Positions 1,423-15,445 of a DNA stretch of 15,445 nt are shown here, in pieces (the first letter of the stretch is position 1; every line of letters begins with the position of its first letter). Source of the DNA: Synechococcus sp. (GTDB taxonomy: Bacteria; Cyanobacteriota; Cyanobacteriia; Thermostichales; PCC-7336). The notes below the pieces were generated by a model. That model saw only the letters and a program-made list of their open reading frames with translations. It made no database searches and was not told where the DNA came from. Location: the NCBI GenBank assembly GCA_051439425.1, contig JBFRWD010000091.1, forward strand, positions 1-15,445, read 5' to 3'. Both the position numbers and the translations under genes were made by a program.

Positions 1423-2019
1423 TTATTGAGTGTGAGCAGCCATCAAGAATCCACGGGCAGCGATGTGGGCGACATCAACCAGCTCGGCATGGGATGCTCC
1501 ATCTTTAGCGGCAGCCGACAGTCCCTTCAACACAACGAACGCGAAATTTGCCAGAACGTCTGCCCTGTCTGCATAGTCTTCTGCAATCCGGCTCCTCAAG
1601 AGTTCTCGGGTTGCTTGTTGATATTGAGAGCTGAGTGCGCAGGCTTCAGCATCGGTACAGTTACGAGTCCCCTCCAGCACTAAGCAGCCTCGGAGTAAGG
1701 CCTGTGAGCTATAGACCTCTGCTGCTTTTAGGAAAAAATTCGAGATCGCAATATCCACTGTTTCGCCGCTCCGTACAGCCTCCGACAACCACTGCCCATC
1801 GAACTGGGTGTATCGCTGCAAAACGCGACTGAATAGCTGGCGTTTACTACCAAACGCACTGTAAAGACTGGGCGGAGTAATACCCATTGTGCGACTCAGC
1901 TCTGCGACTCCGACGCCATCGTAGCCCCGCTGATGAAACAGGCGCTGAGCGGCGGAAATTGCCTCATCGACATCAAATTGCCTCGGACGCCCGCGTCCAG
2001 ATATTTTTTTAGCGACCAC
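1423..2019 (-). CDS. bdcR: TetR/AcrR family transcriptional regulator, BdcR(YjgJ)-like
   Basis: TetR HTH GRPRQFD...LFHQRGYDGVGVAEL...GITPPSLYSAFGSKRQLF; C-terminal GCLVLEG and GLSAAAKDG resemble E. coli BdcR as I recall it. The track ORF (to 2151) overlaps the divergent SDR, so the in-frame GTG at 2019 is the likely start. Confidence 0.85.
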   Translation of the reverse strand: MVAKKISGRGRPRQFDVDEAISAAQRLFHQRGYDGVGVAELSRTMGITPPSLYSAFGSKRQLFSRVLQRYTQFDGQWLSEAVRSGETVDIAISNFFLKAAEVYSSQALLRGCLVLEGTRNCTDAEACALSSQYQQATRELLRSRIAEDYADRADVLANFAFVVLKGLSAAAKDGASHAELVDVAHIAARGFLMAAHTQ

Positions 2020-2049
2020 TAGATTATTCGATAGAACCCTGCTACTTTG

Positions 2050-2075
2050 ATTTATATAGTAGTCGATACATAAAT
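2050..2075. promoter_or_regulatory. Inverted repeat, putative TetR/BdcR operator
   Basis: ATTTATaTA-N8-TAcATAAAT (8 of 9 positions pair) in the 67-bp gap between the divergent TetR and SDR starts. Confidence 0.65.
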
Positions 2076-2086
2076 GGATGGGGCAT

Positions 2087-2800
2087 ATGTCAGTTCTTGC
2101 GGGCAAAAAAGCATTGGTATTGGGCGGTAGTCGCGGAATCGGTGCCGCCATTGTCGAACGCTTGGCGGCGGACGGGGCCGATACTGCGTTTACCTACGGT
2201 CGCTCGGCCGAAGCGGCGACCCAGTTAGCTAGCAAGACTCGCACCACCGCATTTCAGGCGGATAGTGCCGATCGCGTTGCCGTTAGCCGGCTCATTGCCG
2301 AGCAAGGAGCACTCGATATTTTAGTGATTAATGCGGGCGTGTTGGTGATGGGTGACCCGCTAGATATTGACCCGGACGATGTGGATCGCATGATCGATAT
2401 CAACGTGCGTGGTCCTTACCATGCTGCTGTGGATGGAGCACGACAGATGAATGATGGCGGACGGGTGGTGATTGTGGGCTCTGTGAATGGCGATCGCATG
2501 CCCTTTCCTGGAGGTGCCGCATATGCGCTGACCAAATCAGCCATTCAGGGCATGGTGCGTGGCTTGGCCCGAGATTTTGGCCCTCGCGGAATTACAGTGA
2601 ATAGCGTTCAACCTGGCCCCGTAAACACAGAGATGAACCCCGAAGATGGGCCCATGAAAGATGCGATGCATTCGTTTATGGCGATTAAGCGACATGCTCA
2701 ACCGGCTGAAATTGCAGGTATGGTGGCTTATCTGGTCGGGCCTGAGGCTGGTATCGTTACCGGTGCCCAGCACACCATCGACGGCGGCTTTGGTGCGTAA
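2087..2800 (+). CDS. bdcA: Short-chain dehydrogenase/reductase, BdcA(YjgI)-like
   Basis: Rossmann LGGSRGIG, INAG, catalytic YALTK (YxxxK). GSVNGDRMP, RGLARDFGPRGIT, MAIKRH and terminal HTIDGGFGA closely follow E. coli BdcA as I recall it. 237 aa from ATG 2087. Confidence 0.88.
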   Translation: MSVLAGKKALVLGGSRGIGAAIVERLAADGADTAFTYGRSAEAATQLASKTRTTAFQADSADRVAVSRLIAEQGALDILVINAGVLVMGDPLDIDPDDVDRMIDINVRGPYHAAVDGARQMNDGGRVVIVGSVNGDRMPFPGGAAYALTKSAIQGMVRGLARDFGPRGITVNSVQPGPVNTEMNPEDGPMKDAMHSFMAIKRHAQPAEIAGMVAYLVGPEAGIVTGAQHTIDGGFGA

Positions 2801-2838
2801 GCGGAATTCAACCTGTCGCTTCAGCTTGAATACTTCGC
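2801..2838. terminator. Stem-loop between convergent SDR and LysR genes, possible bidirectional terminator
   Basis: GCGGA-ATTCAAcCTG-tcgctt-CAGcTTGAAT-ac-TTCGC imperfect hairpin directly after the SDR stop codon. Confidence 0.45.
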
Positions 2839-2859
2839 AAACGAAGGAGCGCGATATCT

Positions 2860-3765
2860 CTATTGGGCTGTGGCTGTCACTTGCTGCTGCAGGAATGACA
2901 GCACGGCTTTGACCTTTTGCGGGAGAAAATTTTGACTGGGGTAAACCATCCACGCCGCTGTCCTAAACTCGGTAGCGGTGACATCGTAAGCGGGAAACAC
3001 ATCTTGCAAGCGGCCAGCATTAAGATCGTCCCCAATCGCCCAATCTGCCAATAACACGGGGCCTAGTCCCGCTAGCGCACAGTCTCTTAAGGCTAAAGCG
3101 CTAGAGGTAACGATGTCTCCGTCTACATGGATGTCTTGTCGCTCTCCGATGGTGGAGCGAAACCGCCAAAGGGAGCGATAACCCGGCAAATCGAATAGCA
3201 GGCAGCGGTGTCGCTCCAAATCCCTCGGATCGTTCAATGCTGATGTTTGCTTGAGATACTCGGGGCTGGCACAGACGCGATACCGCGTATCAAACAGCTT
3301 GATGCGTTCTAGGTCGGCGGTAATGCGCGGGGCCAAGCGAATGGCGAGATCGATGCGCTCGGAAACGAGGTCGAGATTGGTGTCGCTCAGTATGAGTTCC
3401 AGCTTGAGCTGGGGGAACTGGCGACGCAATTGAGGGAGTAATGGAACTAGCCAGAGCTGGCCCAATGCGACTGATGTTGTCAGACGTAGGGTTCCTGCTG
3501 GATTCCCTTTGGCTGCCAAAATCTCTTCGCGAGCGCGGTTTAGCTCTTCCAGCGCATTGGCAATTCGACCGAGATACTGCTCCCCTGCCGCCGTCAGAGC
3601 CATACGCCGAGTGGTCCGTTGAAATAGCCGAAACCCCAGACTGTCCTCCAGAGACGAGATACTGCGAGAGATCGAAGAAGGATCGACATTGCGATCGCGT
3701 GCAACGGCAGCAAAGCTGCCTCTACGAGCAACTTCAACAAAAATCTGCAAGCTAGCGACATCCAT
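2860..3765 (-). CDS. LysR family transcriptional regulator (CrgA/DmlR-like)
   Basis: HTH IFVEVARRGSFAAVAR...SISRSISSLEDSLGFRLFQRTTRRMALT; substrate domain DLVSERIDLAIR, VCASPEYL, DLERHRCL. Confidence 0.93.
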   Translation of the reverse strand: MDVASLQIFVEVARRGSFAAVARDRNVDPSSISRSISSLEDSLGFRLFQRTTRRMALTAAGEQYLGRIANALEELNRAREEILAAKGNPAGTLRLTTSVALGQLWLVPLLPQLRRQFPQLKLELILSDTNLDLVSERIDLAIRLAPRITADLERIKLFDTRYRVCASPEYLKQTSALNDPRDLERHRCLLFDLPGYRSLWRFRSTIGERQDIHVDGDIVTSSALALRDCALAGLGPVLLADWAIGDDLNAGRLQDVFPAYDVTATEFRTAAWMVYPSQNFLPQKVKAVLSFLQQQVTATAQ

Positions 3766-3774
3766 TCGTGTTTT

Positions 3775-3791
3775 ATTCGCATGAATGCAAT
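3775..3791. promoter_or_regulatory. Putative LysR recognition box (T-N11-A)
   Basis: ATTCGCATGAATGCAAT, an imperfect dyad with T3777-N11-A3789, about 10 bp upstream of the LysR start in the divergent promoter gap. Confidence 0.5.
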
Positions 3792-3874
3792 GATCTATAT
3801 CCTCTTTATTGTCATAAGCGAACTAGTTAGAGTGACCCCACGATTGTTTGTGACGTAATACAGGTTTGACAAGA

Positions 3875-4756
3875 ATGTTTCATTTAGAGAGAGGGCGAGC
3901 GACTATCGCGGTGTTGGGGGTGGGGGCAATGGGCGCCCGCATGGCGACTCGGCTGTTGAATGCAGGCCATCAGGTTACTGTCTGGAATCGAACTGCGTCC
4001 AAAACGGCACCGCTTGTGGAATTAGGGGCAACAGTAGCCCATACGCCATATGCTGCCGTGACCCAAGCCGATGTTGCAATTACTATGGTGCGGGATGTTG
4101 ATGCGTCCAAGGATGTTTGGTTAAACCCCGAGTATGGTGCCCTGGCAGGGATGAAGCGGGGAGCAATTGCGATTGAAAGCTCCACATTAACGATGGGGTG
4201 GGTGGAGACCTTGGCGCAACAATGCAGCGATCGCCAGGTTTTATTTTTGGATGCCCCTGTCGCTGGCAGTCGTCCTCAAGCAGAAGCAGGCCAGCTCATA
4301 TATATAGTGGGTGGGAACCGCGAGATCGTAGAGCGCGTGACTCCCCTACTTCAGGTGATCGGTCAGGCTGTCCATCACGCAGGTGAGATCGGACACGGCA
4401 CAGCAATTAAGTTAGCTATCAACACTCTATTTAGTGCTCAGATTGCCCTCGTGGCAGAACTGCGAGGCGTGTTTGGGAACAGCGCTGTAAACGAGCAGAA
4501 AGCCTTCGAGATCGTTGCGAAAACGCCGGTTTGTAGTCCGGCAGTAGCAGTTGCAGTCAGAGCAATGGCATCCAGTTCGTTTTCTCCACTGTTTCCCATT
4601 GAGTTAGTTGAGAAAGATTTAGAGTACGCAGCCAGCCTTGCAAAACGAAACAACGCCCGCATTCCAATTAGTACGGTGACCCGGCAAGTTTTCAAGGAAG
4701 CAATACTAAACGGATATGGTGCTGACAACATTACAGGTGTGTCACAGCTTTATTAA
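3875..4756 (+). CDS. NAD(P)-dependent oxidoreductase, beta-hydroxyacid (3-hydroxyisobutyrate) dehydrogenase family
   Basis: IAVLGVGAMGARMA, VWNRT, FLDAPVAGS, GTAIKLAIN (catalytic Lys), VEKDL. Start at ATG 3875 or TTG 3866. Confidence 0.9.
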   Translation: MFHLERGRATIAVLGVGAMGARMATRLLNAGHQVTVWNRTASKTAPLVELGATVAHTPYAAVTQADVAITMVRDVDASKDVWLNPEYGALAGMKRGAIAIESSTLTMGWVETLAQQCSDRQVLFLDAPVAGSRPQAEAGQLIYIVGGNREIVERVTPLLQVIGQAVHHAGEIGHGTAIKLAINTLFSAQIALVAELRGVFGNSAVNEQKAFEIVAKTPVCSPAVAVAVRAMASSSFSPLFPIELVEKDLEYAASLAKRNNARIPISTVTRQVFKEAILNGYGADNITGVSQLY

Positions 4757-5173
4757 CAGAGATAGAGAAACCGTACATATGTTGAGCTGAGGTAGGGGGG
4801 CACTAGATTCCAAGTATCCTTTCCGAGGAGATCTCGAATGTAATAAGTGAAAACTATCCTTTTGATAATTTCATGCTATGGATTGTTCGAGATTGACTGT
4901 GATTGCTTGAAGATCCAATGGTTACCATAGATAAAAATTATGGTTTAGTCTCAACGCTCAATGAATTGCCTTTCAGAAGGCTAAGAAGGCTCAATATTTG
5001 TAGGACTTTCAGCTTCTAATCGGGTACCTGTCAATCGTTTATCCCTAAGGAGGTCTGCTGTCTCTCATAGATTCTTACATTGATAATTTGTAATCTGATG
5101 GTGTTGATTTAGATGGTAAGATTTTGAAAACAAACGAGCTCATTTGTAAGGTCGTTTACCCTCTATCCTCACC

Positions 5174-5584
5174 ATGCTGTTGCGACTTTCTAAGTTTCAT
5201 TTCACCCACGTTTTAAAGGGATTGTTCGGTACTACTGTGTCGTTCGTTCTATTGCTTGTAATGCTTGTACATCCTGTTTCGGCCAAAACACATGTGGTCA
5301 AAATGGGGACAGACCGAGGCATTCTGGCATTTGAGCCCAGTACTTTAACGATTGAAGTGGGTGATACTGTTAAGTGGATTAATAACAAAGCATTTCCCCA
5401 CAACGTCGTCTTCGATCGCCGCGCTCCCGATGCCGTTCGACAGCATTCTCAAAAGCGTTTGCTAGCATCACCGTCGATAGAAATTAGCGAAACATTTGAC
5501 GACGTTCCTCCAGGTGAGTACTCCTACCATTGTTTGCCCCATCGTGGTGGCGGTATGACGGCGACATTAATTGTTCGCGAATAG
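5174..5584 (+). CDS. petE: Plastocyanin / type-1 blue copper protein precursor
   Basis: Signal peptide ending PVSA; mature VKMGTDRGILAFEPSTLTIEVGDTVKWINN; Cu ligands His (PHNVVF) and Cys/His/Met (CLPHRGGGM). Confidence 0.85.
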   Translation: MLLRLSKFHFTHVLKGLFGTTVSFVLLLVMLVHPVSAKTHVVKMGTDRGILAFEPSTLTIEVGDTVKWINNKAFPHNVVFDRRAPDAVRQHSQKRLLASPSIEISETFDDVPPGEYSYHCLPHRGGGMTATLIVRE

Positions 5585-5630
5585 CTGCAGTACCGAGCGA
5601 GTCCATTTCTGCGATCGCCTCTACAGAATT

Positions 5631-5666
5631 TAAACAAGCTCAATCACTCACTATTGAGCTTGTTTA
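5631..5666. terminator. Perfect 14-bp hairpin, probable bidirectional terminator
   Basis: TAAACAAGCTCAAT-cactcact-ATTGAGCTTGTTTA between the convergent plastocyanin and LysR stops, followed by GTTTT. Confidence 0.7.
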
Positions 5667-5692
5667 GTTTTGGATTGATGACTTTAAAGGAT

Positions 5693-6565
5693 TTACGCAA
5701 ATAGCCCAGTTCTTCGCAAAACATCCAGAAATTGATGGGCGGCTGGCGTTAAGTCTGCATTCGCCAATACGGCCACACCGATCGAACGTTCCAGTGGAAT
5801 CGGTAACTGAAACGATTGCACTCCGTCGGGTAGTGGAATCGTTGCCAAATGGGGCAAAATGGCGGCTCCCAATCCCTGCGCCACCATGCTCAAAATCGTT
5901 GAGTCTTCTTTGATTTCGTACGCAACATTAAACGGCTGACCAACCGTTTGCCAGTGATCCCGCAACACTGATGTGCATTCTGCATAGCTGTGGAGGATGA
6001 ACGAGTACTCTCCCAGTTTTTCCCAAGTCAGTTGCTCTCCCGAGTGAACATCTCCATCCGGCAATAACACAACAAATTCGTCCCGAGCGATTTCCCAAGT
6101 CTCGAAGTCTGACGAACGTGGCAGCGGCACCAAGCCTATATCGGCAATACCTTCTCGCAATGCTTGCTCTACATCCAGCGGATCGCTCTCTTTGAGGCTG
6201 ACTTCAATATTTGGAAACCGCTGTGTGAGTTGGGAAATCGCAGGAGGGACAAGGTGCGTTGCCGCACTGCGGAACGAAGCAACCCTGACTCTGCCCCCAT
6301 CAAGCCCGCGTACCACGTTGGCGTCTCGCTCCATCAATGCCCGAGTTTGGACGATCGCCCGAGCGTGGCTCAGCATTTTCTCGCCAATTTCTGTCAGGCG
6401 GGCGCCGAATCGTCCACGTGATAGCAAGACAATGCCTAACTCATCTTCCAAGGACGAGATTGCCCGACTGACTGCCGACTGAGAGATGCCCAGCTTATTC
6501 GCTGTCACGGAAAAGTTTTGTGATTCGGATACATCTAGAAAGATGCCCAGTTGATCCATGTTCAT
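5693..6565 (-). CDS. LysR family transcriptional regulator
   Basis: MNMDQLGIF is the reverse complement of 6539-6565 (CAT at 6563-6565) and the stop is TTA at 5693-5695, so the gene is on the minus strand, contrary to the track. HTH NFSVTANKLGISQSAVSRAISSLEDELGIVLLSRG; MVAQGLGAAILP. Confidence 0.93.
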   Translation of the reverse strand: MNMDQLGIFLDVSESQNFSVTANKLGISQSAVSRAISSLEDELGIVLLSRGRFGARLTEIGEKMLSHARAIVQTRALMERDANVVRGLDGGRVRVASFRSAATHLVPPAISQLTQRFPNIEVSLKESDPLDVEQALREGIADIGLVPLPRSSDFETWEIARDEFVVLLPDGDVHSGEQLTWEKLGEYSFILHSYAECTSVLRDHWQTVGQPFNVAYEIKEDSTILSMVAQGLGAAILPHLATIPLPDGVQSFQLPIPLERSIGVAVLANADLTPAAHQFLDVLRRTGLFA

Positions 6566-6598
6566 GGAGACCTACACGGAGTCAGTAACTATTGGGAC

Positions 6599-6614
6599 TG
6601 TAACCGTCGTTACA
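6599..6614. promoter_or_regulatory. Putative NtcA binding site
   Basis: TGTAACCGTCGTTACA = TGTA-N8-TACA with a 6-bp perfect dyad, 33 bp upstream of the LysR start. Confidence 0.6.
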
Positions 6615-6638
6615 TTTACGCCAATGAAGAGGTTATTG

Positions 6639-6670
6639 ATTCGGTTTTCGCATAGATACGCTTCGCAAAT
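6639..6670. promoter_or_regulatory. Two adjacent putative LysR T-N11-A boxes
   Basis: ATTC-N7-GCAT (6639-6653) and ATAC-N7-AAAT (6656-6670) in the divergent LysR/cupin gap. Confidence 0.4.
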
Positions 6671-6771
6671 TGTGTTGTAGATCGCATTTGGCGGCGATAG
6701 ATTATTTGAAAATTTGGTCACCTTAATAAATATTTATCTCGCATCCGGACGTTACTCCGCAGGTTTACGCC

Positions 6772-7263
6772 ATGTTCGAGCTGATTTCCTACAAAAAGTT
6801 CCGCGATACTCCGCAAGTGCGATTTTTTGATATCACAGTTGCTGATTCTAATGCTCGCGATTTAGTCTGTCACGAAGGCCCCGCCACCAGCCCCAACAAT
6901 ACTCCTGACGGGCACTGGCAGTTCTACCTTCACCCCGGCCAAGAAGATAACTTACTGGCCCTGTCTGGTGGAAGAACGTTTTTCCTCGTGAATTTCTCGT
7001 GGAAGCAACCGTTTCATATCGTTCGTCTGGAAGCCAACGGCGATATCCTGCGCATCCCCCCCGGTACCTTTCACCGTTCTGTTTCCGATCCGCAGGGATC
7101 TGTGGTGATCAACCAAGCAGTTCGGCACGCAAGCGCTACTGTCGAAAGTGAGTTTCGAGTGTACAACAGCGCCGAGATTCCTCGACTCTTGCAGGTAACT
7201 TCGGACAACGCTCCACCTCCCTTGCTGCACCAGTTCAGTCAAGAGCGCCGAAACGCAGCATAG
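6772..7263 (+). CDS. Conserved cyanobacterial cupin-like protein (homologs often annotated 'redox protein')
   Basis: Cupin-type metal motifs WQFYLHPGQEDNL and LRIPPGTFHRS; N-terminus FRDTPQVRFFD resembles a cyanobacterial family I recognise. Confidence 0.75.
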   Translation: MFELISYKKFRDTPQVRFFDITVADSNARDLVCHEGPATSPNNTPDGHWQFYLHPGQEDNLLALSGGRTFFLVNFSWKQPFHIVRLEANGDILRIPPGTFHRSVSDPQGSVVINQAVRHASATVESEFRVYNSAEIPRLLQVTSDNAPPPLLHQFSQERRNAA

Positions 7264-7347
7264 TGTTTTGTCCGCGCGCGCACATCTTGGCAAAGTAGGT
7301 GCGGTCTGAACATGTCAGACATCAAGTGACTCGCAACCCTGTTCGGT

Positions 7348-7839
7348 TTAGTCAACCTGACAGCGATCGCTACATTCATCTATGGCTTGTTGACGCATGC
7401 GTACAATCTCGTTGAGGTTCGGTCGTCCTGTCACCGCCAAGCGGCGATCAGCCCATAACTCATACAGTTTGTCCACCAGCGGTCCGACCACTGGCCACCG
7501 AGTAGCAGCATAAATCCATCCGATCCCAAGTGCGTCGTATACCTGACGAAACACGTCTACCCCCCGGATGATGGCACCATCTGACTTCACCGCATGAATG
7601 ACACCCATCGCCGTTTTAAAGTCAATCCCAGCGTGATTTTGTGGGTTGTAATCCAGTGCCGCAATATCCACGAATGAAATGATGCCTCGTCCCGCATCTT
7701 TGCGACGCAAGAAGTTGACCTCGCGAACGCACAGGGGACAATCTCCGTCGAATAGCAATTCGATTTGCCAAGTTGGACGTTGCTGGGCTGCACTGCGTTC
7801 ATCCCGTTGAGGAGCTGTGGCAGAAGATTGAGTGGTCAT
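7348..7839 (-). CDS. DCC family (DUF393) thiol-disulfide oxidoreductase
   Basis: LLFDGDCPLCVREVNFL (DGxCxxC), FVDIA, AMGVIHA, GVDVFRQVY, YELWADRR. Confidence 0.9.
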   Translation of the reverse strand: MTTQSSATAPQRDERSAAQQRPTWQIELLFDGDCPLCVREVNFLRRKDAGRGIISFVDIAALDYNPQNHAGIDFKTAMGVIHAVKSDGAIIRGVDVFRQVYDALGIGWIYAATRWPVVGPLVDKLYELWADRRLAVTGRPNLNEIVRMRQQAIDECSDRCQVD

Positions 7840-8330
7840 AGAATTCTTCGTGGTGATGCCAAGTCTTGTCTTTCATTATGAGCGCGATCGCCCTTTTGTT
7901 AAGAACGATAAAGATTTTATTGTCAATTACTGACCGGATCTTGAGTGGTCGTGCTGGTGAAAGAGGGCAGCGCTTGAGTGGGTTGTATTTGGACAACCTT
8001 GGTGTATGGCCGGATCGGTGTACTAGTGGTGTGCCCGTACTCGTGCTGTGTTTGCGGAACAGTGATTGGGGCAACCCCTTGCAGTAATGTGTTGTCCGAT
8101 TTGATGGCATTACTTCGTAGCAAGCCTGACAACTGATGAGGTCTTGGTACGGTGATAAATGACGTGCACTTCGGTGACATTAATGTAAACTGTCTGCCTG
8201 ATTTGAATCGGTATGAGGGTCGCCTCTTTACCAACATGCTTCATGACAAAAACGAAAGGTTAGGTAACAGGGCGATCGCCGCAACAGCAATTCTGGGGCA
8301 AGCTGAGTCAAACCCATCCGTTTCCATTTT

Positions 8331-8954
8331 ATGACTGAGGAATTCCAACTCAACACGCTATACCTTTCAGGACATCGTGACTTTAACCACCTCACCTCTA
8401 GTATGTTGCGAGGTCAGTCACTCAACGGCAAAGTTTTACCTGATATTCAATTCAATGGGGCGGAATTGGAGGGGATTGATTTTAGCGAATCCGATTTGTC
8501 GTCAGCCTCTATGCGAGGAGCGTTGCTCAATGGCAGTAACCTCAATTCGACAGGATTAATTGGAGCCAATTTGCGAGAAGCAGAATTGCGAGCAGTTGAC
8601 TTAAGTGACAGTAAACTTGAGCACTGCTGTTTGATTGGTGCCGACCTCACAGTGTCAAATTTAACAGCGGCTGACCTGACCTTTGCTCGACTGATTGGTG
8701 CCTGTTTGCGTGCGGCGAATTTGTCGAAAGCCTGTCTGCATCAAGCTGACTTGCGCGGAGCGAATTTGTGGGGGGCAAATGTTCAAGGGGCGAACCTTCA
8801 ACAAGCAGACTTGGTGGCGACAGATTTAAGTGAAACCAATCTGAATGAGGCCGACGTAGCTGGCGCTATCTACAGTGTTGATACCATTTTTCCGCCAGGG
8901 TTTAACCCCGATACCGCCAGCATGGTTCTAGAAAATAGACCCACCCGTGCTTGA
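8331..8954 (+). CDS. Pentapeptide repeat protein
   Basis: A(D/N)LxX repeats (ANLRE AELRA VDLSD, ADLRG ANLWG ANVQG); caps YLSGHRDF and GAIYSVDTIFPPGFNP. Confidence 0.92.
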   Translation: MTEEFQLNTLYLSGHRDFNHLTSSMLRGQSLNGKVLPDIQFNGAELEGIDFSESDLSSASMRGALLNGSNLNSTGLIGANLREAELRAVDLSDSKLEHCCLIGADLTVSNLTAADLTFARLIGACLRAANLSKACLHQADLRGANLWGANVQGANLQQADLVATDLSETNLNEADVAGAIYSVDTIFPPGFNPDTASMVLENRPTRA

Positions 8955-9315
8955 GGACGAGTTGGACACTATATGAGAGTGCGACTGGTCAGGCGACAAA
9001 CTTAGTCCTAAATGGAAGTTAGCCGCACTGTTTTTTGGCGTTGATGCAGCCAGCTCTCTTTCTAGTCTCTATGGGCAATTCGTTTAACGTTACTGGCTTA
9101 TCTGTCCATTGCTACAACCGTACCTGGCACCTATCCCGATGCTAAGACTGAATCTGCGATCCCGAAATGAGTAGTTTGGCCCGGGCCAAGCAGGACATCC
9201 GAGGATACACTCATACCCAGCATTTTGTGCCTCTCTGACCAAGGCGAGCGTACAAGTGACATCGGAGTGCAGCAATTGTGCTGCCGAAGTGGGGGGTGAA
9301 TTCATTGGGGGATGA

Positions 9316-10125
9316 GTGGTGTTAAACGTCTCAAATCACGAACAGGTTTCTGACGCATCGTCGGAACCTTTAGAGGGAGTTGAAGCTTTGCGACAACTCT
9401 CGGAATCGGAAACAACATCTGGCAGAACCTACTGTCGAGATCGCGCCGCCAAGTTGCTGTTGGAGCGCTATGCGGCAGGGGAGCGCGAATTTCGCAGTTT
9501 ACGACTAATTGGAGCAGACCTGCCCGGTATTCAGCTCTGCCATGCAGATTTGCGGGAGGCTAATCTCAGCCGAGCCAATCTTGAGGAAGCCGACCTAACC
9601 GGAATTGATTTGGCAGGGGCTAAATTAGTCGAAGCAAACTTAGTCCAGTCTCAGCTTAGTAAAGCTGAACTCGGCGAAGCATTTCTGATTGGCACTCAGA
9701 TGTCGGACTCTATTTGCAGCGATGCCGATTTTCGGAAGGCAAATTTGGGTCAAGCTAACCTCACTAACGCCTCGCTACAGGGGGCACAGTTACAAGGAAG
9801 TCGCTTGATTAGCAGTGACCTGAGTGGAGCCAACTTGCAAGGGGCCGATCTACAACAGTCCTATCTGATCGAGACGAGGTTCGATCGCGCCAACCTACAA
9901 TCGGCCCAATTACAGGGGGCTGTGATGCAGGGGGCCAGCCTGCGAGACTGCGATCTGACCAATGCAGATCTGACTGAGGCCATTCTGATGGATGCCGATC
10001 TAAGGGGGGCCAATTTGAACAATGCCAACCTCGATGGCAGCGTTCTTGATGGGGCACAGTATGACGAACGAACTGTGTTTCCCCCTACCTTTAATTCCCA
10101 AGCCATCGGTGCTCCGATTACTTAG
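9316..10125 (+). CDS. Pentapeptide repeat protein
   Basis: LLERYAAGEREF cap, a long A(D/N)LxX array and C-terminal GAQYDERTVFPPTF. GTG start at 9316 is uncertain. Confidence 0.92.
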   Translation: MVLNVSNHEQVSDASSEPLEGVEALRQLSESETTSGRTYCRDRAAKLLLERYAAGEREFRSLRLIGADLPGIQLCHADLREANLSRANLEEADLTGIDLAGAKLVEANLVQSQLSKAELGEAFLIGTQMSDSICSDADFRKANLGQANLTNASLQGAQLQGSRLISSDLSGANLQGADLQQSYLIETRFDRANLQSAQLQGAVMQGASLRDCDLTNADLTEAILMDADLRGANLNNANLDGSVLDGAQYDERTVFPPTFNSQAIGAPIT

Positions 10126-10374
10126 CGCTTTCGCCCCTGGGCCCGTGGCCCGGTTGGATAGTGGATTCTCCGGTAGTTATTGCTGGTCTGTACTGGTTCT
10201 AACGAGCTATTCACGATCGTCACCGCGAGTCAGTAATACGGAGCTGAACGCTTACTGTTTTCGATACCACTGAGTTCGCTTGGCTGGAGATTGGGGAACG
10301 AGAACACAATCCGACAATTGCGGGAACGCTAGCTACATGCTCGCGATGGTTCTGTCCTGTTTTGCTAGAGCCTT

Positions 10375-10641
10375 ATGATTGGCGATATACAACAACGTTT
10401 ACTCGTGCTAGAGCTAGACATCTTGGCTTTGGAAGTTGAGCTACGATTGCGCGCTGCACGATCGCTTCCACTGGCGCCATTTCCAGCCCGTTCGCAGTTA
10501 TGGTTGCTGGGATATTTACCCAGCGTGCTCCCCCATTTATCTACTGTTCTGAAAGACATGGAAAGTCTGACGGAACTATCCGATTTCTGGTCTCCCAGCA
10601 GTAGATTGGTGACATCGGCTCAATCTTCCGTCTCTCCATAA
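10375..10641 (+). CDS. Hypothetical small protein (88 aa)
   Basis: ATG start, fills otherwise empty space, Leu-periodic helical N-terminus (IQQRLLVLELDILALEVELRL). No recognised family. Confidence 0.4.
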   Translation: MIGDIQQRLLVLELDILALEVELRLRAARSLPLAPFPARSQLWLLGYLPSVLPHLSTVLKDMESLTELSDFWSPSSRLVTSAQSSVSP

Positions 10642-10688
10642 AATCGGAGCGCCTTCAAGCTACTGCGGTATTGCGGTTGACTATCGTC

Positions 10689-10973
10689 TTACCAAGCATC
10701 CTCGTCGCCGCTGATTAGCCAAGTGATAGACACACCAAGGGCTTTGGCGATCGCCACCAATTCCCAATCAATCACTCTGCGCTTACCATTTTCAATCTGT
10801 CCTACCTTGACGTAGTCCAAGGTAATTCCGTAGCGGGCCAATTTTCCAGCCAGCTCATCTTGAGTTAGCCGTAACTTTTCTCGCATCCAGCGCACCCTGG
10901 GGCCAATGATATTAGCCGGACGGGGATTACTCTTCCGAGAAATAGGATCTGAAGGCTTGGAATTCTGACTCAA
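10689..10973 (-). CDS. XRE/Cro-C1 family HTH transcriptional regulator
   Basis: NIIGPRVRWMREKLRLTQDELAGKL...VGQIENGKRRVIDWELVAIAKALGVSITWL is a typical HTH_3 domain. TTG start is uncertain. Confidence 0.88.
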   Translation of the reverse strand: MSQNSKPSDPISRKSNPRPANIIGPRVRWMREKLRLTQDELAGKLARYGITLDYVKVGQIENGKRRVIDWELVAIAKALGVSITWLISGDEDAW

Positions 10974-11396
10974 CAGTTTGACCTTCGGGCTGTAAATGCC
11001 TCGAGCTTCGAAAGGTAGAGTAAGGCGCTCGATTCGTGCGAGCTAATTTGATGTGAGATAGACAACATAAGGGGTATGGCAGGATTTTCGATTTTCGATC
11101 TTGAGCCACTGCCTCCTGACACGTTCACCTATAGACACTATGCCGAATCCAAGACTTCTACTTCAAGATCCGATCTATGAGTAAAGCCAATCGTTCGGGT
11201 AATGAGAGCGAATATGTCCGTAATCGTCGCCCGTTTCGACATCTTGGCGAAGTTTTCCAAGCGTTGACTGCCCATCGATAAGAATTTATCTACCCAAAGC
11301 ATAGATGCTCTCAATTCCTAAGGATCGATTTTCGATTACTACCCACTGCGACGTCTTCCTAGACTATGGATGTGCATTAAAACCTCCTTTATAAAC

Positions 11397-12428
11397 ATGA
11401 CTGCTGCAAAAGCCTCTCTCTCCTGGACGGGAGATCCACCTACACCAGCATCCGCTAATCAGGTCTCGTTTGGAAGTGTTGAAGATGCTGTAGATCTCTA
11501 TCTGAACGAAATTGGCCGTGTCGATCGCATCGATCACGCAGATGAAATTCGCCTCTCTCGCGCCGTGCGCAAGTTAGTTGATATTCGCGAGATGCGGGAA
11601 GTCATTGAAGAAGAAGTGGGTCAGCGTCCCTCTGACGTTGACGTTGCCGAGCGCATGGGGACCAGCGAGCTAGAGTTGCGTGGTGACGAGCGTCGCGGCA
11701 AGCGAGCTCAGCAACAGCTAATCAACTCGAATTTGAGGTTGGTGGTTAGCGTCGCTAAAAAGTATGTTAATCGAGGCGTTCCGTTCCTCGATTTAATCCA
11801 AGAAGGGAATATCGGCTTGATTCGCGCCACCGAGCGATTCGACGCGGAGCGCGGATACCGATTTAGTACTTATGCCCACTGGTGGATTCGTCAGGGGGTT
11901 ACCCGTTGTATTGCGAACCAAGCCCGTACGATTCGTCTCCCCGTTCATATGGTTGATAAGGTCCGTCATCTGAAACGGACGATCCGCGATCTCACCAAAG
12001 AAAAGGGACGTCGCCCTAGTGATGAGGAGTTGGCGGAAGCGATGGGTGTCAAGCTGAAAAAGCTGCGCACCATTCAACAGTCGGCGACCTTGCCAATTTC
12101 ACTCGATGTAATGGTTGGTCCTGAGGGCGAAACTCGCTTGGGTGATTTGCTAGAAGATACCCAGTCCGATCGCCCTTTTCAGGAAATTGTGGCAAACTCC
12201 ATGCAAAAGGATGTCCAGTCTGCAATGGGGATTTTGAAGCCGATGGAGCGTGATGTCCTGCGCTTGCGCTATGGCTTCGATGGCGGTAAAGGAAAAACCT
12301 TGCGGGAAGTTGGCGAGCATTTTGATTTGACTCGCGAACGCATTCGTCAGATTGAGAAGGAAGCATTGCGTAAGCTGCGATCGATGAAAACCACCCGCCA
12401 CACCTTGGATGGGTATCTAGCGAATTAA
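11397..12428 (+). CDS. RNA polymerase sigma-70 factor, RpoD-like (probable cyanobacterial group 2)
   Basis: Region 1.2 DAVDLYLNEIGR, region 2 NLRLVVSVAKKY...DLIQEGNIGL...FSTYAHWWIRQ, region 3 TIRLPVH, region 4 TLREVGEHFDLTRERIRQIE; short N-terminus. Start at ATG 11397 or 11370. Confidence 0.92.
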   Translation: MTAAKASLSWTGDPPTPASANQVSFGSVEDAVDLYLNEIGRVDRIDHADEIRLSRAVRKLVDIREMREVIEEEVGQRPSDVDVAERMGTSELELRGDERRGKRAQQQLINSNLRLVVSVAKKYVNRGVPFLDLIQEGNIGLIRATERFDAERGYRFSTYAHWWIRQGVTRCIANQARTIRLPVHMVDKVRHLKRTIRDLTKEKGRRPSDEELAEAMGVKLKKLRTIQQSATLPISLDVMVGPEGETRLGDLLEDTQSDRPFQEIVANSMQKDVQSAMGILKPMERDVLRLRYGFDGGKGKTLREVGEHFDLTRERIRQIEKEALRKLRSMKTTRHTLDGYLAN

Positions 12429-12453
12429 CCCCCTCGGTCTATCCCTTCATTGT

Positions 12454-12487
12454 GCCGGTTAGCTGCTTTCACGCTTACCGGCTTTTT
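12454..12487 (+). terminator. Intrinsic terminator of the sigma gene
   Basis: GCCGGTtAGC-N9-GCTtACCGGC followed by TTTTT, 25 bp after the stop codon. Confidence 0.75.
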
Positions 12488-12956
12488 AGTGGTTGAGTGT
12501 GCAGCCAACCTGGTCACCAACAAAAGGAGATTCATATCGCGCCTGGCAATTCACCATGGAGGGGTCTGTTCTCAAAATCAAGGCTTTGAACAGTCTCCAT
12601 ATCTCTAGGCATTGCAGCGGACTGTCACAGCATATCTTCCAAACTCGTATCATCAAATTCTCATATGTGAGGCACCCGACAGACTTTTTGCGGTGTTAGT
12701 ATTTCGATAAATCTTCAGTTTCTAGAAAATCGAAATGTTACAGTTCGATTTCCCCTTGTAGGGCGTTAACCCTTCTCGGATACATTCATCCATCATCGAC
12801 CAATCCCTGATTAAGAGCGTCGCTTCGTGAGTTGACTACGACGCAATGTAGCTGGATCTTCGCCACAATAGCACTTACTTTAGTATTTAAGTGAATATTT
12901 GACTACGATCTATTGTCCCGAACGACGCTGTTGGCGCGAATATTGGAACCAGTAAG

Positions 12957-14309
12957 ATGCATTCTCCTCATGGTGATCGCAAATCAGCGATTTCACTCTC
13001 TCCTCGTCGTAAAAGATGGGGAGTTGCGGCGGCGGGCCTAATTGTGGTTGGTGGCCTGATAGGCATTAGTACTGCCCGCAATAGTTCTCAATCGCAAGCG
13101 ACGGCCCCACCCCCCGCTCTCTCAGTGCGAGTTCAAGATGTAGCCTCCGAATCCATCTTCAAATCATCAGAATTTGTAGGATCCTTGAATGCTTTGGAGC
13201 GCGTTGCTTTGCGCCCTGAGGCTGAGGGACGAGTGCAGCAAATTTTGGTGAGGGAAGGGGAGCGAGTGATTGTCGGTACCCCTATGGTGCAACTGGAGTT
13301 CGATCGTCCCCAAGCCCAGGTAGATGGAGCCTTGGCCAATGTGATGGTTGCTCGCGCTGCACAGAATAGTGCTCGGGCTCAACTGCTGGCGGCTCAAGCC
13401 GACCGAGATCGAGAAGTGGCGGAAGTCGAGCTGCAGATGGCAGAATTTGAGCGCACCGAGTTACTGGTTGGTGAAGGCGCTATCTCCGTTCAAGAGCTGG
13501 ATCGGGTGCGGCGAGATCGGGATGCTGCTGTTGCCGCCTTAAATGCAGCAGAACGCAGAGTGGCATCGTCGGAAGCCGTATTGGAAGAGGCCGAAGCGGC
13601 GATCGCCCAGGCTAACTCCAATGCAACAGTGGCTCAAGAGGATTTGGACGATTACAACATACTGGCACCGATTGCCGGCGTTGTTGGAGATATTCCGGTA
13701 GACGTTGGAGATTATGTCGAAACCGATACCGTTCTGACCTCCGTTGTCCAGAACGAGACATTGGAGCTGCGGCTGGCTATTCCGATCGAACAAGCCAGAG
13801 GATTGCGACCCGATTTGGAGGTGCAATTAACCCTACCGGGGGAAAATGAGCCCATTGCATCGGGACAGATTGACTTTGTCTCACCCCAAGTGGACCCAAC
13901 TCGTCAGGTGATTTTGGCAAAAGCAAGCTTCGATAACCCCGACGGGTTGTTGCGGGACGAGCAATTTGTTGCGGCCAGCATTATTTGGGAAGAAACATCT
14001 GCGCTGACGGTTCCCACATCTGCCGTCTCGTTTATCGGCAATCAAGCATTTGTCTACGTAGTGGCCCAGATTGCGCATGAAGAGACAGGACTCGGTGACT
14101 CGGCAATGGACGGCTCGGATGCCTCTCAAGCCATTGCTCAACTGCGGCCAGTGCAATTGGGAACTCTGCAGCTCAACACTTACGAGATCGTCTCTGGGTT
14201 GAATGCAGGAGAAACCATCGTCACGTCTGGGTTGCTCAATTTGTTTGACGGTGCGGCAATTTCGCCAGAAACAGATGTAGCCACTTTATCCCCCCCATCC
14301 GAGTCCTGA
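12957..14309 (+). CDS. RND efflux periplasmic adaptor (membrane fusion protein, AcrA-like)
   Basis: N-terminal basic+TM anchor, lipoyl halves (LRPEAEGRVQQILVREGERV; ILAPIAGVVGDIPVDVGDYV), long Ala-rich coiled hairpin, GQIDFVSPQVD, SGLNAGETIVTSG. Confidence 0.93.
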   Translation: MHSPHGDRKSAISLSPRRKRWGVAAAGLIVVGGLIGISTARNSSQSQATAPPPALSVRVQDVASESIFKSSEFVGSLNALERVALRPEAEGRVQQILVREGERVIVGTPMVQLEFDRPQAQVDGALANVMVARAAQNSARAQLLAAQADRDREVAEVELQMAEFERTELLVGEGAISVQELDRVRRDRDAAVAALNAAERRVASSEAVLEEAEAAIAQANSNATVAQEDLDDYNILAPIAGVVGDIPVDVGDYVETDTVLTSVVQNETLELRLAIPIEQARGLRPDLEVQLTLPGENEPIASGQIDFVSPQVDPTRQVILAKASFDNPDGLLRDEQFVAASIIWEETSALTVPTSAVSFIGNQAFVYVVAQIAHEETGLGDSAMDGSDASQAIAQLRPVQLGTLQLNTYEIVSGLNAGETIVTSGLLNLFDGAAISPETDVATLSPPSES

Positions 14310-14341
14310 AGCGTTGTTGGTACTAACGGCATCGACATATT

Positions 14342-14369
14342 TCTGGACAAGAGTATCCGGACAAGAGCA
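14342..14369 (+). repeat. Tandem 14-bp direct repeat
   Basis: TCTGGACAAGAGTA followed by TCCGGACAAGAGCA (12/14 identical) in the MFP-GUN4 gap. Confidence 0.8.
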
Positions 14370-14393
14370 TATTGAACGCAAGGTTTTTGGCAC

Positions 14394-15047
14394 ATGGATT
14401 TAGATAAGCAACTGCCCACCGAGAAACTATCTAACTCGCAGGGAGAGAGTTCGCAGCTAGCAGCGATTGCCGAACAATTGGCCCGTTTGAATGCCCAGGT
14501 GGCAACGGTCCAGCAGCAACTAGACACGCTTCCCGAGTTGACGGACACCGTTCAACAAATCGAGGGTACTCTAGCCCTCGTTTCTGACGTCTATCGCTAC
14601 AAACCCTTACAACAACATCTAGAAGCCGGGAATTGGTGGGATGCCGATCTGGCCACAATCCAGTTAATTGTCGAAATTGCTGGTGCAGTGGATATCGAAG
14701 AACTTACACCCAATAGCATTCGGCACATTCCATGCAACGCGTTGCAAACCATCGATCGATTGTGGCGTGACGCCAGCGATGGCCGATTTGGGTTTTCGGT
14801 ACAGATTCAACTGTATGTCGAAGAGGGCGGCAGCCTGAATACGACTGTGGAGCAGAACTCTGAGGTGATTGCTGCTTGGGGCGATCGCTTGGGCTGGCGG
14901 GAGGGAAATCGCTGGCGAAAATGCAGCGAACTGGATTTTAGTCTCGATGCGCCAGTGGGATGTCATCCGTCGCAATGGTGGAACTCCCCCTACGGCTCTA
15001 AGATGACCAACTTTTTCCTGGCAAGACTCCTAACCTGTAGCTTGTGA
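14394..15047 (+). CDS. GUN4 domain-containing protein with N-terminal coiled coil
   Basis: GUN4 core motifs YKPLQQHLEAGNWWDADLAT, IPCNALQTIDRLWRDASDGRFGFSVQ, LGWR, LDFSLDAPVG; N-terminal Gln/Leu heptad segment. Confidence 0.88.
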   Translation: MDLDKQLPTEKLSNSQGESSQLAAIAEQLARLNAQVATVQQQLDTLPELTDTVQQIEGTLALVSDVYRYKPLQQHLEAGNWWDADLATIQLIVEIAGAVDIEELTPNSIRHIPCNALQTIDRLWRDASDGRFGFSVQIQLYVEEGGSLNTTVEQNSEVIAAWGDRLGWREGNRWRKCSELDFSLDAPVGCHPSQWWNSPYGSKMTNFFLARLLTCSL

Positions 15048-15051
15048 CGCC

Positions 15052-15445
15052 ATGTTTGTTGAAACATTTATTCGGCGACCGGTTCTCACCATCGTTTGTT
15101 CCATTGTTGTGTTGCTTGCCGGTTTGGTTAGTCTTCCGACGTTGCCGGTGGAGCAATATCCAGACATTAGTCCGCCACAAGTGGTCGTGTCGGCTACCTA
15201 TATTGGAGCCAATGCCAGTGTTGTGGAAGAAACGGTCACCACTGTTTTGGAACGGGAGATTAACGGTGTTACCGGCATGCGCTACATGTCATCTATTAGC
15301 TCAGAGGATGGCAATAGCAGCATCACCATTACCTTTGACCAAGGCTATGACATCGATATTGCAGCCGTAGATGTCTTGAATCGAGTTTCGGTTGCAGAAC
15401 CACAATTGCCCTCTCCCGTGCAGCAAACGGGCATCAGTATTACCA
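15052..15445 (+). CDS. RND efflux permease (AcrB/HAE1 family), 5' part, truncated by window end
   Basis: Not in the ORF track (no stop in the window). Manual translation: MFVETFIRRPVLTIVCSIVVLLAGLVSLPTLPVEQYPDISPPQVVVSATYIGANASVVEETVTTVLEREINGVTGMRYMSS..., a classic AcrB N-terminus. Confidence 0.95.
   Translation, partial: MFVETFIRRPVLTIVCSIVVLLAGLVSLPTLPVEQYPDISPPQVVVSATYIGANASVVEETVTTVLEREINGVTGMRYMSSISSEDGNSSITITFDQGYDIDIAAVDVLNRVSVAEPQLPSPVQQTGISIT

Follow-up and report, generated by a model that had tools for sequence, protein, structure and literature searches.

A gene encoding a GUN4-domain protein lies between the adaptor and permease genes of a resistance-nodulation-division (RND) efflux pump in Synechococcus sp. 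(NCBI GenBank assembly GCA_051439425.1, contig JBFRWD010000091.1). The stretch analyzed, called the window below, is this whole contig of 15,445 nucleotides (C91). We coined the label CC-GUN4 for the protein, a paralog that joins a coiled-coil N-terminus to a GUN4 core and is not a Mg-chelatase cofactor. The arrangement is conserved across deep cyanobacterial lineages and has been re-created repeatedly, and from this gene order a functional tie of CC-GUN4 to RND efflux is well supported. It points to a pump accessory that is not described in the literature searched.

The CC-GUN4 gene and its conserved linkage to RND pumps

The three genes are all on the + strand in the order adaptor, CC-GUN4, permease, as the first-pass annotation had read them from the DNA sequence. 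The first (12957-14309) encodes a 450-residue periplasmic adaptor (membrane fusion protein) that matches TIGR01730 RND_mfp (198.5 bits, cut-off 94.9; 1.3e-58), HlyD_D23 (2.9e-16) and HlyD_3, has a hydrophobic membrane anchor at about residues 22-40, and is 84% identical to the adaptor in the same position at locus L004, that of the closest relative. The CC-GUN4 gene (14394-15047, PF05419) encodes 217 residues and is followed by the first 131 codons of an HAE1-type, AcrB-like RND permease gene (15052-15445), which is open at the contig end and matches PF00873 ACR_tran (2.7e-44), with RND_permease_1 and TIGR00915 (HAE1) as the best NCBIfam models. An 84-nt spacer (14310-14393, +) separates the adaptor and CC-GUN4 genes, and the 4 nt CGCC (15048-15051) separate the CC-GUN4 TGA stop codon (15045-15047) from the permease ATG at 15052. 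The latter distance is exactly that given in the first-pass annotation and is consistent with translational coupling of CC-GUN4 and permease. By a simple scan no terminator-like site was found on the + strand between the three genes, and the window as a whole has no Rfam match at or above a family's gathering score. None of the 13 sequencing runs found for 12957-15445 was listed as RNA. The 528-nt noncoding stretch 5' of the adaptor gene (12429-12956, +; no open reading frame (ORF) of at least 80 aa) is presumed to be the promoter or regulatory region of the cluster. It contains one weak sigma-70-like match (12624-12653) that is not above shuffle expectation, and the adaptor/CC-GUN4 spacer contains one weak promoter-like match (14344-14373).

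The end of the contig interrupts the permease gene immediately ahead of a run of eight G. The last 11 bases of the window (15435-15445) equal C124:1-11, and the permease continues on contig C124 from residue 129, C124:2-2845 being 95% identical to residues 129-1074 of the L004 permease. As the 11-base overlap of C91 and C124 restores one reading frame, the organism most likely has an intact permease gene. With TIGR00915 (cut-off 940.35) the full-length ortholog at L004 reaches 1283.2 bits. A MsbA/HlyB-like ATP-binding cassette (ABC) exporter gene lies 3' of the permease gene on C124, and the series sigma factor, adaptor, GUN4-like protein, permease and ABC exporter is the same at L004. No TolC-like outer-membrane factor was found in the window; a two-repeat OEP protein (582-aa frame) at C85:34154-35398 is a candidate partner only. 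Only 4 AcrB-like loci occur in the 4.8 Mb of the window genome, and by a rough estimate the chance of a random RND/CC-GUN4 adjacency is well under 1%. The arrangement of adaptor, CC-GUN4 and permease genes is more than chance.

Conservation of the linkage was surveyed by a scan of one genome per prokaryotic species, which gave 112 relatives. The neighbors of the best 80 loci were analyzed by calling ORFs, clustering them and annotating the cluster representatives by Pfam (ORF positions outside the window genome are ORF calls of this analysis). As loci were chosen by similarity to the query, the shares describe the subfamily of the query and not all GUN4 paralogs. A CC-GUN4 ORF could be called in 77 of the 80 loci, and the remaining three had no RND gene by tblastn. 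An RND gene was directly adjacent on the same strand in 38 of the 77 loci; 17, mostly from Pleurocapsales, had an ABM-domain gene plus a receiver-fused thioredoxin-reductase-like gene, two (both Acaryochloris) had a CPA2 antiporter gene alone, one had a pump close by that was not adjacent, and 19 had other neighbors. The first-pass annotation had named a linkage not conserved in other genomes as the first of its refuting conditions; the linkage is conserved, in 38 of the 80 related loci.

The 38 RND-adjacent loci come from 35 assemblies, mostly of marine cyanobacteria and from at least nine named families or orders (carriers are Leptolyngbyaceae, Nostocaceae, Hapalosiphonaceae, Rivulariaceae, Calotrichaceae, Elainellaceae, Microcoleaceae, Nodosilineaceae and Pleurocapsales), and 28 of them have the strict order adaptor-GUN4-(CPA2)-permease. 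In a CC-GUN4 tree from a quick maximum-likelihood search, with SH-aLRT (approximate likelihood ratio test) support only and a single distant paralog as root, the loci linked to a pump make up entire supported clades. These are the Nostocales (15 of 15), the window with L004, and a second clade (15 of 15) in which the named rows are Leptolyngbyaceae, Elainellaceae, Nodosilineaceae and Microcoleaceae. CC-GUN4 identity between the linked clades is only about 50%. Where the permease gene comes next, the gap after the GUN4 gene is 3-10 nt in nine of 30 loci; the gap between adaptor and GUN4 genes is 160-660 nt in most Nostocales loci. Two single assemblies carry duplicates of the whole cluster (L032 and L047; L076 and L082).

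The strict subfamily (E <1e-60) was found in four genomes besides that of the window among 401 sampled genomes of the phylum, and some 30 CC-GUN4-like genes that are more distant, each of about 200 aa, were in the same sample. In the distant subfamily (40-50% identity) the order is adaptor-permease-GUN4 in four of the 20 loci fetched, and likewise at L017; the pump of such loci is a different RND paralog (49-53% identity). In genome G058 a GUN4-like gene lies between a permease gene and an adaptor gene. The pumps with the strict gene order form one orthologous group of the HAE1 type; for their closest homologs (62-64% identity) in genomes without strict CC-GUN4, the adaptor and permease genes adjoin in six of six loci, and the CC-GUN4 gene therefore looks like an optional insert into a standard pair rather than a core part. 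The window genome itself has on contig C122 a second paralog, a 184-aa coiled-coil GUN4 protein (L110:2661-3215, -), the gene of which is convergent with the 3' end of another RND permease gene (L110:178-1878, +; 45% identical to the window-type pump, the contig starting inside the gene). A universal stress protein gene follows. This paralog keeps C114 and C215 of CC-GUN4 and lacks C177 and C190.

The pump-linked clusters often contain a third transporter gene. A CPA2-family antiporter gene (PF00999, TIGR00932) is present in 18 of the 38, lying before the adaptor gene, between the GUN4 and permease genes, or after the permease gene, and Pfam matched no KTN domain in these CPA2 proteins. In Acaryochloris the CPA2 gene stands alone with the GUN4 gene, with a 40-nt gap and no adjoining permease gene. 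Loci illustrating the association are L030-L067 (Nostocales), L031/L033/L039, L008, and L007/L011. The window cluster has no CPA2 gene; CPA2 homologs are on C172, C5 and C103. The 17-locus arrangement of Pleurocapsales and relatives (e.g. L015, L016, L018, L025-L027, L034, L038, L044, L057, L073) is a different conserved context with a redox flavor, in which the gene after CC-GUN4 encodes a 212-aa protein with two stretches matching ABM, and the next one the receiver-fused thioredoxin-reductase-like flavoprotein (TIGR01292, 224 bits, below the cut-off). Genes encoding VOC/glyoxalase, DJ-1/PfpI and DsbA-like proteins are recurrent neighbors.

Two records call for comment. Locus L023, filed under Candidatus Gracilibacteria, has the gene context of L021, a Hydrococcus locus, and the CC-GUN4 proteins of the two loci group together with 100% support; L023 is probably a mis-binned cyanobacterial contig. 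Mastigocoleus testarum BC008 (G004) has a large expansion of GUN4 paralogs, with two complete CPA2-adaptor-GUN4-permease clusters (L032 and L047) and 26 PF05419 matches, many of them equal-scoring pairs, so that there may be fewer genes.

The CC-GUN4 protein compared with canonical GUN4

CC-GUN4 matches PF05419 GUN4 with 126 bits (cut-off 29.2; 1.6e-36) over residues 66-200, and NCBIfam has no model for it. A word-index search gave 444 homologous proteins at E ≤0.001. The 120 of these that were listed are 197-283 aa in length and 52-78% identical to CC-GUN4 (its own entry aside), and the named ones are all cyanobacterial. An AlphaFold2 model based on a 76-row alignment (mean pLDDT, the model's per-residue confidence, 80.3; above 88 over residues 71-190) shows a pair of long helices at the N-terminus (15-44 and 46-77), predicted with modest confidence, and then a confident helical core. 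All 14 Foldseek matches of the model at E ≤0.001 were GUN4 structures (1Z3X, 7E2R, 4YKB, 7E2T, 4XKC, 4XKB, 1Y6I; E 5e-6 to 1e-4; target-normalized TM score up to 0.78), porphyrin-bound and bilin-bound structures among them, and the next best match had an E of 1.2. Profile comparison with canonical GUN4 gave E values of 2.4e-13 to 3.3e-8. The predicted structure has the cupped-hand, all-helical fold with its alpha6/alpha7 loop.

Hydropathy gave no signal peptide or transmembrane segment in CC-GUN4. The best 12-residue window in the N-terminal 60 aa scored 0.67 (median of 96 family sequences, 0.71) versus 2.48 for the adaptor anchor, and this bears out the first-pass annotation, which had seen no evident signal peptide. 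Only six in-frame codons lie 5' of the CC-GUN4 ATG. Given the fold model, the lack of a hydrophobic N-terminus or membrane segment, and the few upstream codons, we read CC-GUN4 as a cytoplasmic protein composed of a coiled coil and a GUN4 core. The C-terminal signature of CC-GUN4 consists of P192, W195-W196, P199, Y200, K203 and C215. P192, W195, W196, P199 and C215 are invariant across the 96 family sequences, position 200 is always Tyr or Phe, and position 203 is always Lys or Arg. The other cysteines are C114 (94 of 96), C177 (82 of 96) and C190 (75 of 96). A disulfide or metal site among the four cysteines was considered; co-variation was weak, since C190 is lost with C177 kept in several sequences.

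The core fold is shared with canonical GUN4/Ycf53 (Synechocystis sll0558; PDB 1Y6I, 4XKB, 4XKC, 7E2T; T. elongatus 1Z3X). CC-GUN4 differs from these proteins in its coiled-coil N-terminus, which takes the place of the GUN4_N helical domain (PF16416), an extra helix insert of about 10 residues, a WW insertion, a Cys-containing C-terminus, a lower PF05419 score (126 versus 206-223 bits), and the location of its gene within a pump operon. Five of five other carrier genomes encode, besides CC-GUN4, a separate canonical GUN4 with PF05419 scores in this higher range. These canonical orthologs have the sequence GHLPLxNQLRG (LxNxLR) in all five cases and GUN4_N in four; that of the closest relative (L088) is short, 154 aa, and lacks the N-terminal domain. 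In the window genome (G000; 96.17% complete, 182 contigs) we found no canonical ortholog. The best PF05419 match there is 132.7 bits, there are three paralogs and no GUN4_N match genome-wide, and the canonical orthologs of the five genomes match only the three paralogs at 28-35% identity. As the assembly consists of 182 contigs, a canonical GUN4 gene may lie in a gap.

CC-GUN4 was aligned by MAFFT to the canonical orthologs of the five genomes, and the numbering of Synechocystis SynGUN4 was transferred through these orthologs because their residues reproduce the numbering given in PMC1084334. The alpha2/alpha3 loop Trp129-Leu130-Tyr131, required for Mg-chelatase stimulation, is two residues shorter in CC-GUN4, with Trp129 absent and Tyr131 replaced by Thr. 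Palm residues V135, L143, I146, W150, F160, V162, V166 and W167 are all kept or conservatively replaced, R217 corresponds to K203, and N211 to N197 in the strict subfamily. Judged from these alignments, CC-GUN4 has kept the fold and a hydrophobic, aromatic-rich pocket but neither the porphyrin contact of canonical GUN4 nor the loop that faces the chelatase. With its hydrophobic palm retained, it could still plausibly bind a planar hydrophobic ligand. SynGUN4b (sll1380) and SynGUN4c (slr1958) of Synechocystis are likewise uncharacterized GUN4 paralogs.

Possible roles of CC-GUN4 in the pump pathway

RND pumps are three-part machines, and their known extra parts are membrane or periplasmic proteins. 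A parallel in gene layout is CusCFBA of E. coli, where a small protein, the substrate chaperone CusF, is likewise encoded among the core genes of a tripartite RND pump. CusF is a periplasmic protein with a signal peptide that binds Cu/Ag and serves an HME-type pump, whereas CC-GUN4 lacks an export signal and is encoded in an HAE1-type operon. AcrZ (with AcrB) and MexG (with MexHI-OpmD, mexG being in the pump operon) are, like CC-GUN4, non-core partners of HAE1 pumps, but they are small integral membrane proteins and CC-GUN4 is predicted to be soluble and cytoplasmic. KefF and KefG, cytoplasmic ancillary subunits of the CPA2 transporters KefC and KefB, are soluble flavodoxin-like oxidoreductases encoded beside the CPA2 transporter on which they act. 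A CPA2 gene likewise lies beside or near the CC-GUN4 gene in 18 of the 38 loci and in both Acaryochloris loci, but the cluster CPA2 proteins differ from KefC/KefB in having no matched KTN domain, and the window cluster has no CPA2 gene. Tripartite export of a tetrapyrrole, as the first-pass annotation proposed, is known from MacAB-TolC of E. coli, which exports protoporphyrin (PMC4263509); that pump is of the ABC type and is not known to have a GUN4-like partner. No paper linking a GUN4-domain protein to an efflux pump was found in the full-text literature (subscription journals being largely outside the search), in agreement with the annotation, which knew of no characterized RND system containing one. 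Were a soluble cytoplasmic protein to prove a conserved component, RND pumps would have an accessory of a new kind, and with it a new handle on their feeding or control. For the many unexplained GUN4 paralogs of cyanobacteria, this is also a first concrete functional context.

The account that we tentatively prefer is that CC-GUN4 is a cytoplasmic ligand-binding accessory of the pump pathway that buffers or reports a planar amphiphile, the leading candidate being a tetrapyrrole or a breakdown product of one. The conserved hydrophobic palm would hold the planar amphiphilic molecule in the cytoplasm; were this a free tetrapyrrole or a tetrapyrrole breakdown product, it would be bound in a mode other than the canonical Arg214-dependent one. 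CC-GUN4 would be made together with the permease, in the window probably via translational coupling, and would either buffer the ligand until the pump clears it from the membrane or, possibly by touching the permease from the cytoplasmic side, report the ligand to it; handing over, buffering and gating are all candidate modes of action. In favor of this account are the conserved linkage and its recurrence with other RND pumps, the insertion into a standard adaptor-permease pair, the signs of co-expression (no terminator-like site, short gaps to the permease gene), the GUN4 fold with its retained palm, the predicted cytoplasmic location, and the precedent of protoporphyrin export by a tripartite pump in E. 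coli. The question of active export by cyanobacteria, be it of free porphyrins, of bilins or of related aromatic compounds, thereby becomes testable. The accessory role suggested by the first-pass annotation is likely, given the conserved linkage. Its proposed porphyrin-like ligand fared less well: the palm is kept, but the Arg214 position is Tyr or Phe and LxNxLR is reduced to its Asn, so porphyrin was not established. The overall reading of that annotation held for the linkage and the probable accessory role and did not extend to porphyrin specificity or to a cytoplasmic hand-off.

Several observations weigh against the preferred account. The Arg214 position is Y200 in CC-GUN4 and Tyr or Phe in 96 of 96 family sequences. 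In SynGUN4, substitutions R214A and R214E both abolish porphyrin binding, and slr1958 (SynGUN4c) is reported to have Tyr at the same position, for which the authors propose other metabolites as ligand (PMC1084334). LxNxLR, the bilin-binding motif of GUN4 (PMC10156173), has WWNSPY as its counterpart, with Asn alone kept and this in the strict subfamily only (79 of 96); the equation of N197 with Asn211 rests on one MAFFT alignment that crosses the two-residue WW insertion. By that alignment the strict subfamily differs from the paralogs sampled by Rockwell and Lagarias, none of which is reported to keep Asn211. There is no directly adjacent RND gene in 42 of the 80 loci. Pump homologs of 59-66% identity are widespread in cyanobacteria without strict CC-GUN4, so the pump does not need the protein. 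Among 15 long GUN4 relatives examined, fusions join the domain to caspase, TIR, trypsin-like, STAND/WD40 and FGE-sulfatase modules and none to a transporter module; together with the PD-T4-6 match described below, such fusions would fit a general sensor domain rather than a carrier. Finally, HAE1 pumps are understood to take their substrates from the periplasm or the outer leaflet, and a cytoplasmic hand-off would thus be unprecedented; we know of no case of hand-off to an RND permease from the cytoplasm. A complex prediction for CC-GUN4 with residues 205-948 of its own permease frame (C124) scored 0.00, was made without controls, and carries no weight either way.

A short motif in the permeases bears on how CC-GUN4 might act. 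FCxFK[DN]xC occurs just past the last membrane helix in 19 of 23 GUN4-linked permeases, in a tail that we take to be cytoplasmic from the topology of AcrB. It was found in none of six unlinked close homologs, four pumps with the order adaptor-permease-GUN4 and two other pumps of the window genome. The carriers are L008, L031, L032, L037, L045, L047, L048, L051, L054, L055 and L058, and further L061, L062, L064, L066, L067, L071, L076, L080, L119 and L120. As the permeases of the window, L004, L049 and L052 lack the motif, it cannot be a general docking site. When the DNA of 401 genomes of the class was scanned with a degenerate pattern, 19 matches were obtained, a number similar to that for the reversed control pattern; two were at a permease tail (L119, a second adaptor-GUN4-permease cluster of the same genus, and L120, at a contig edge) and 17 outside permease genes. 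We treat the motif as a sequence lead and not as evidence of docking.

This motif is part of the case for a pure sensor or gate, in which CC-GUN4 would dock on cytoplasmic parts of the permease (and of CPA2) and turn transport on or off, the trigger being a metabolite or the thiol oxidation of its conserved cysteines. We consider this unlikely. Its appeal lies in the invariant or near-invariant C215, C114, C177 and C190, in a tail motif that marks most linked permeases, is absent from unlinked homologs and stands at a permease tail in just two of the 401 class genomes, in the Acaryochloris CPA2-GUN4 pair without a permease, in the sensor-like joining of related GUN4 domains to effector modules, in the redox- or electrophile-flavored neighbors (VOC/glyoxalase, DJ-1/PfpI, DsbA-like, thioredoxin-reductase-like), and in the precedent of KefF and KefG for cytoplasmic subunits of CPA2 transporters. 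However, the permease of the window lacks the motif, which marks one pump clade and is inseparable from shared descent, parts of the family have other residues in place of C190 and C177, and we know of no RND permease with a cytoplasmic regulatory subunit. The gene order could also be explained without any common ligand or contact, if CC-GUN4 were an independent stress protein that shares a promoter with the pump and answers the same stress (light, oxidants, electrophiles, salt). Roughly half of the family is not beside a pump (17 ABM/thioredoxin-reductase loci and 19 with other neighbors), the long adaptor/GUN4 gaps of most Nostocales leave room for a separate promoter, and many genomes have the pump without CC-GUN4. 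Such independence is unlikely in view of the insertion exactly between adaptor and permease genes, kept across clades whose CC-GUN4 proteins are only about 50% identical, the recurrence with other RND pumps and in other gene orders, the 3-10 nt spacing to the permease gene in nine of 30 loci, and the whole-cluster duplicates in single assemblies.

Two further explanations would remove CC-GUN4 from efflux altogether, and we think both very improbable. That CC-GUN4 is the working GUN4 of the organism, a Mg-chelatase cofactor located in a pump operon by happenstance, would account for the failure to find a canonical ortholog among the three paralogs of a 96.17%-complete genome, but the canonical gene may sit in a gap of the 182-contig assembly, all five other carrier genomes, that of the closest relative included, have a separate canonical ortholog, and CC-GUN4 has lost the Trp129-Tyr131 loop and has Tyr in place of Arg214. 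A stand-alone conflict or anti-phage sensor is suggested by the PD-T4-6 profile match (4.6e-30), by relatives fused to caspase, TIR and STAND modules, and by a TIR-GUN4 protein elsewhere in the window genome; yet the profile match covers only the non-kinase C-terminal part, CC-GUN4 has no effector domain, no defense genes were recognized in the window, and the conserved neighbors of CC-GUN4 are transporters.

A bolder reading, which we offer as a doubtful possibility, would make CC-GUN4 the first cytoplasmic RND pump subunit, a coiled-coil oligomer under the permease trimer, in many lineages also on the CPA2 antiporter of the cluster, that couples export and proton cycling to free tetrapyrrole or to thiol-oxidizing photodamage. 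If true, marine benthic cyanobacteria would gain a dedicated route for shedding phototoxic pigment intermediates. Cultured carriers include Calothrix parasitica NIES-267, Mastigocoleus testarum BC008, Adonisia turfae CCMR0081 and Acaryochloris marina MBIC11017. The idea that the downstream ABC exporter carries out type I secretion of CC-GUN4 was rejected; the ABC gene is 3' of the permease gene only in the window genome and L004, and a homologous ABC gene is near only one other locus (L069).

Related GUN4 proteins and other genes of the window

The 15 long relatives came from an exhaustive profile search (12 reach the C-terminal signature and 3 are the highest-scoring long matches), and four of them consist of GUN4 repeats alone. 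A word-index search for longer forms gave one match, an 831-aa TPR-GUN4 protein. Residues 12-215 of CC-GUN4 match positions 254-447 of the 450 of the PADLOC PD-T4-6 profile, and this E. coli anti-phage protein therefore appears to end in a GUN4-like module. Its N-terminal kinase part, described as a Ser/Thr kinase for a streptococcal match (PMC11514479), is unmatched in CC-GUN4. A GUN4-kinase protein and an RND gene have been named as separate phage-resistance loci (PMC10811720). The TIR-GUN4 fusion of the window genome is a 355-aa protein on contig C74 (L001:943-2010, +) with matches to TIR_2 (4.4e-25) and GUN4 (6.7e-38). It looks like a sensor-effector of conflict or defense because PADLOC TIR-type models and PD-T4-6 also match.

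The rest of the window (1426-12425) encodes a TetR-family regulator with a short-chain dehydrogenase/reductase (SDR), two LysR regulators, an NAD-binding dehydrogenase, two pentapeptide-repeat proteins and a helix-turn-helix (HTH) protein. A plastocyanin/azurin-like protein is encoded at 5174-5584 and a DCC1-like thiol-disulfide oxidoreductase at 7348-7839 on the - strand. A sigma-70 factor gene (11370-12428) lies upstream of the adaptor gene, and the same is seen at L004, the sole locus checked for it.

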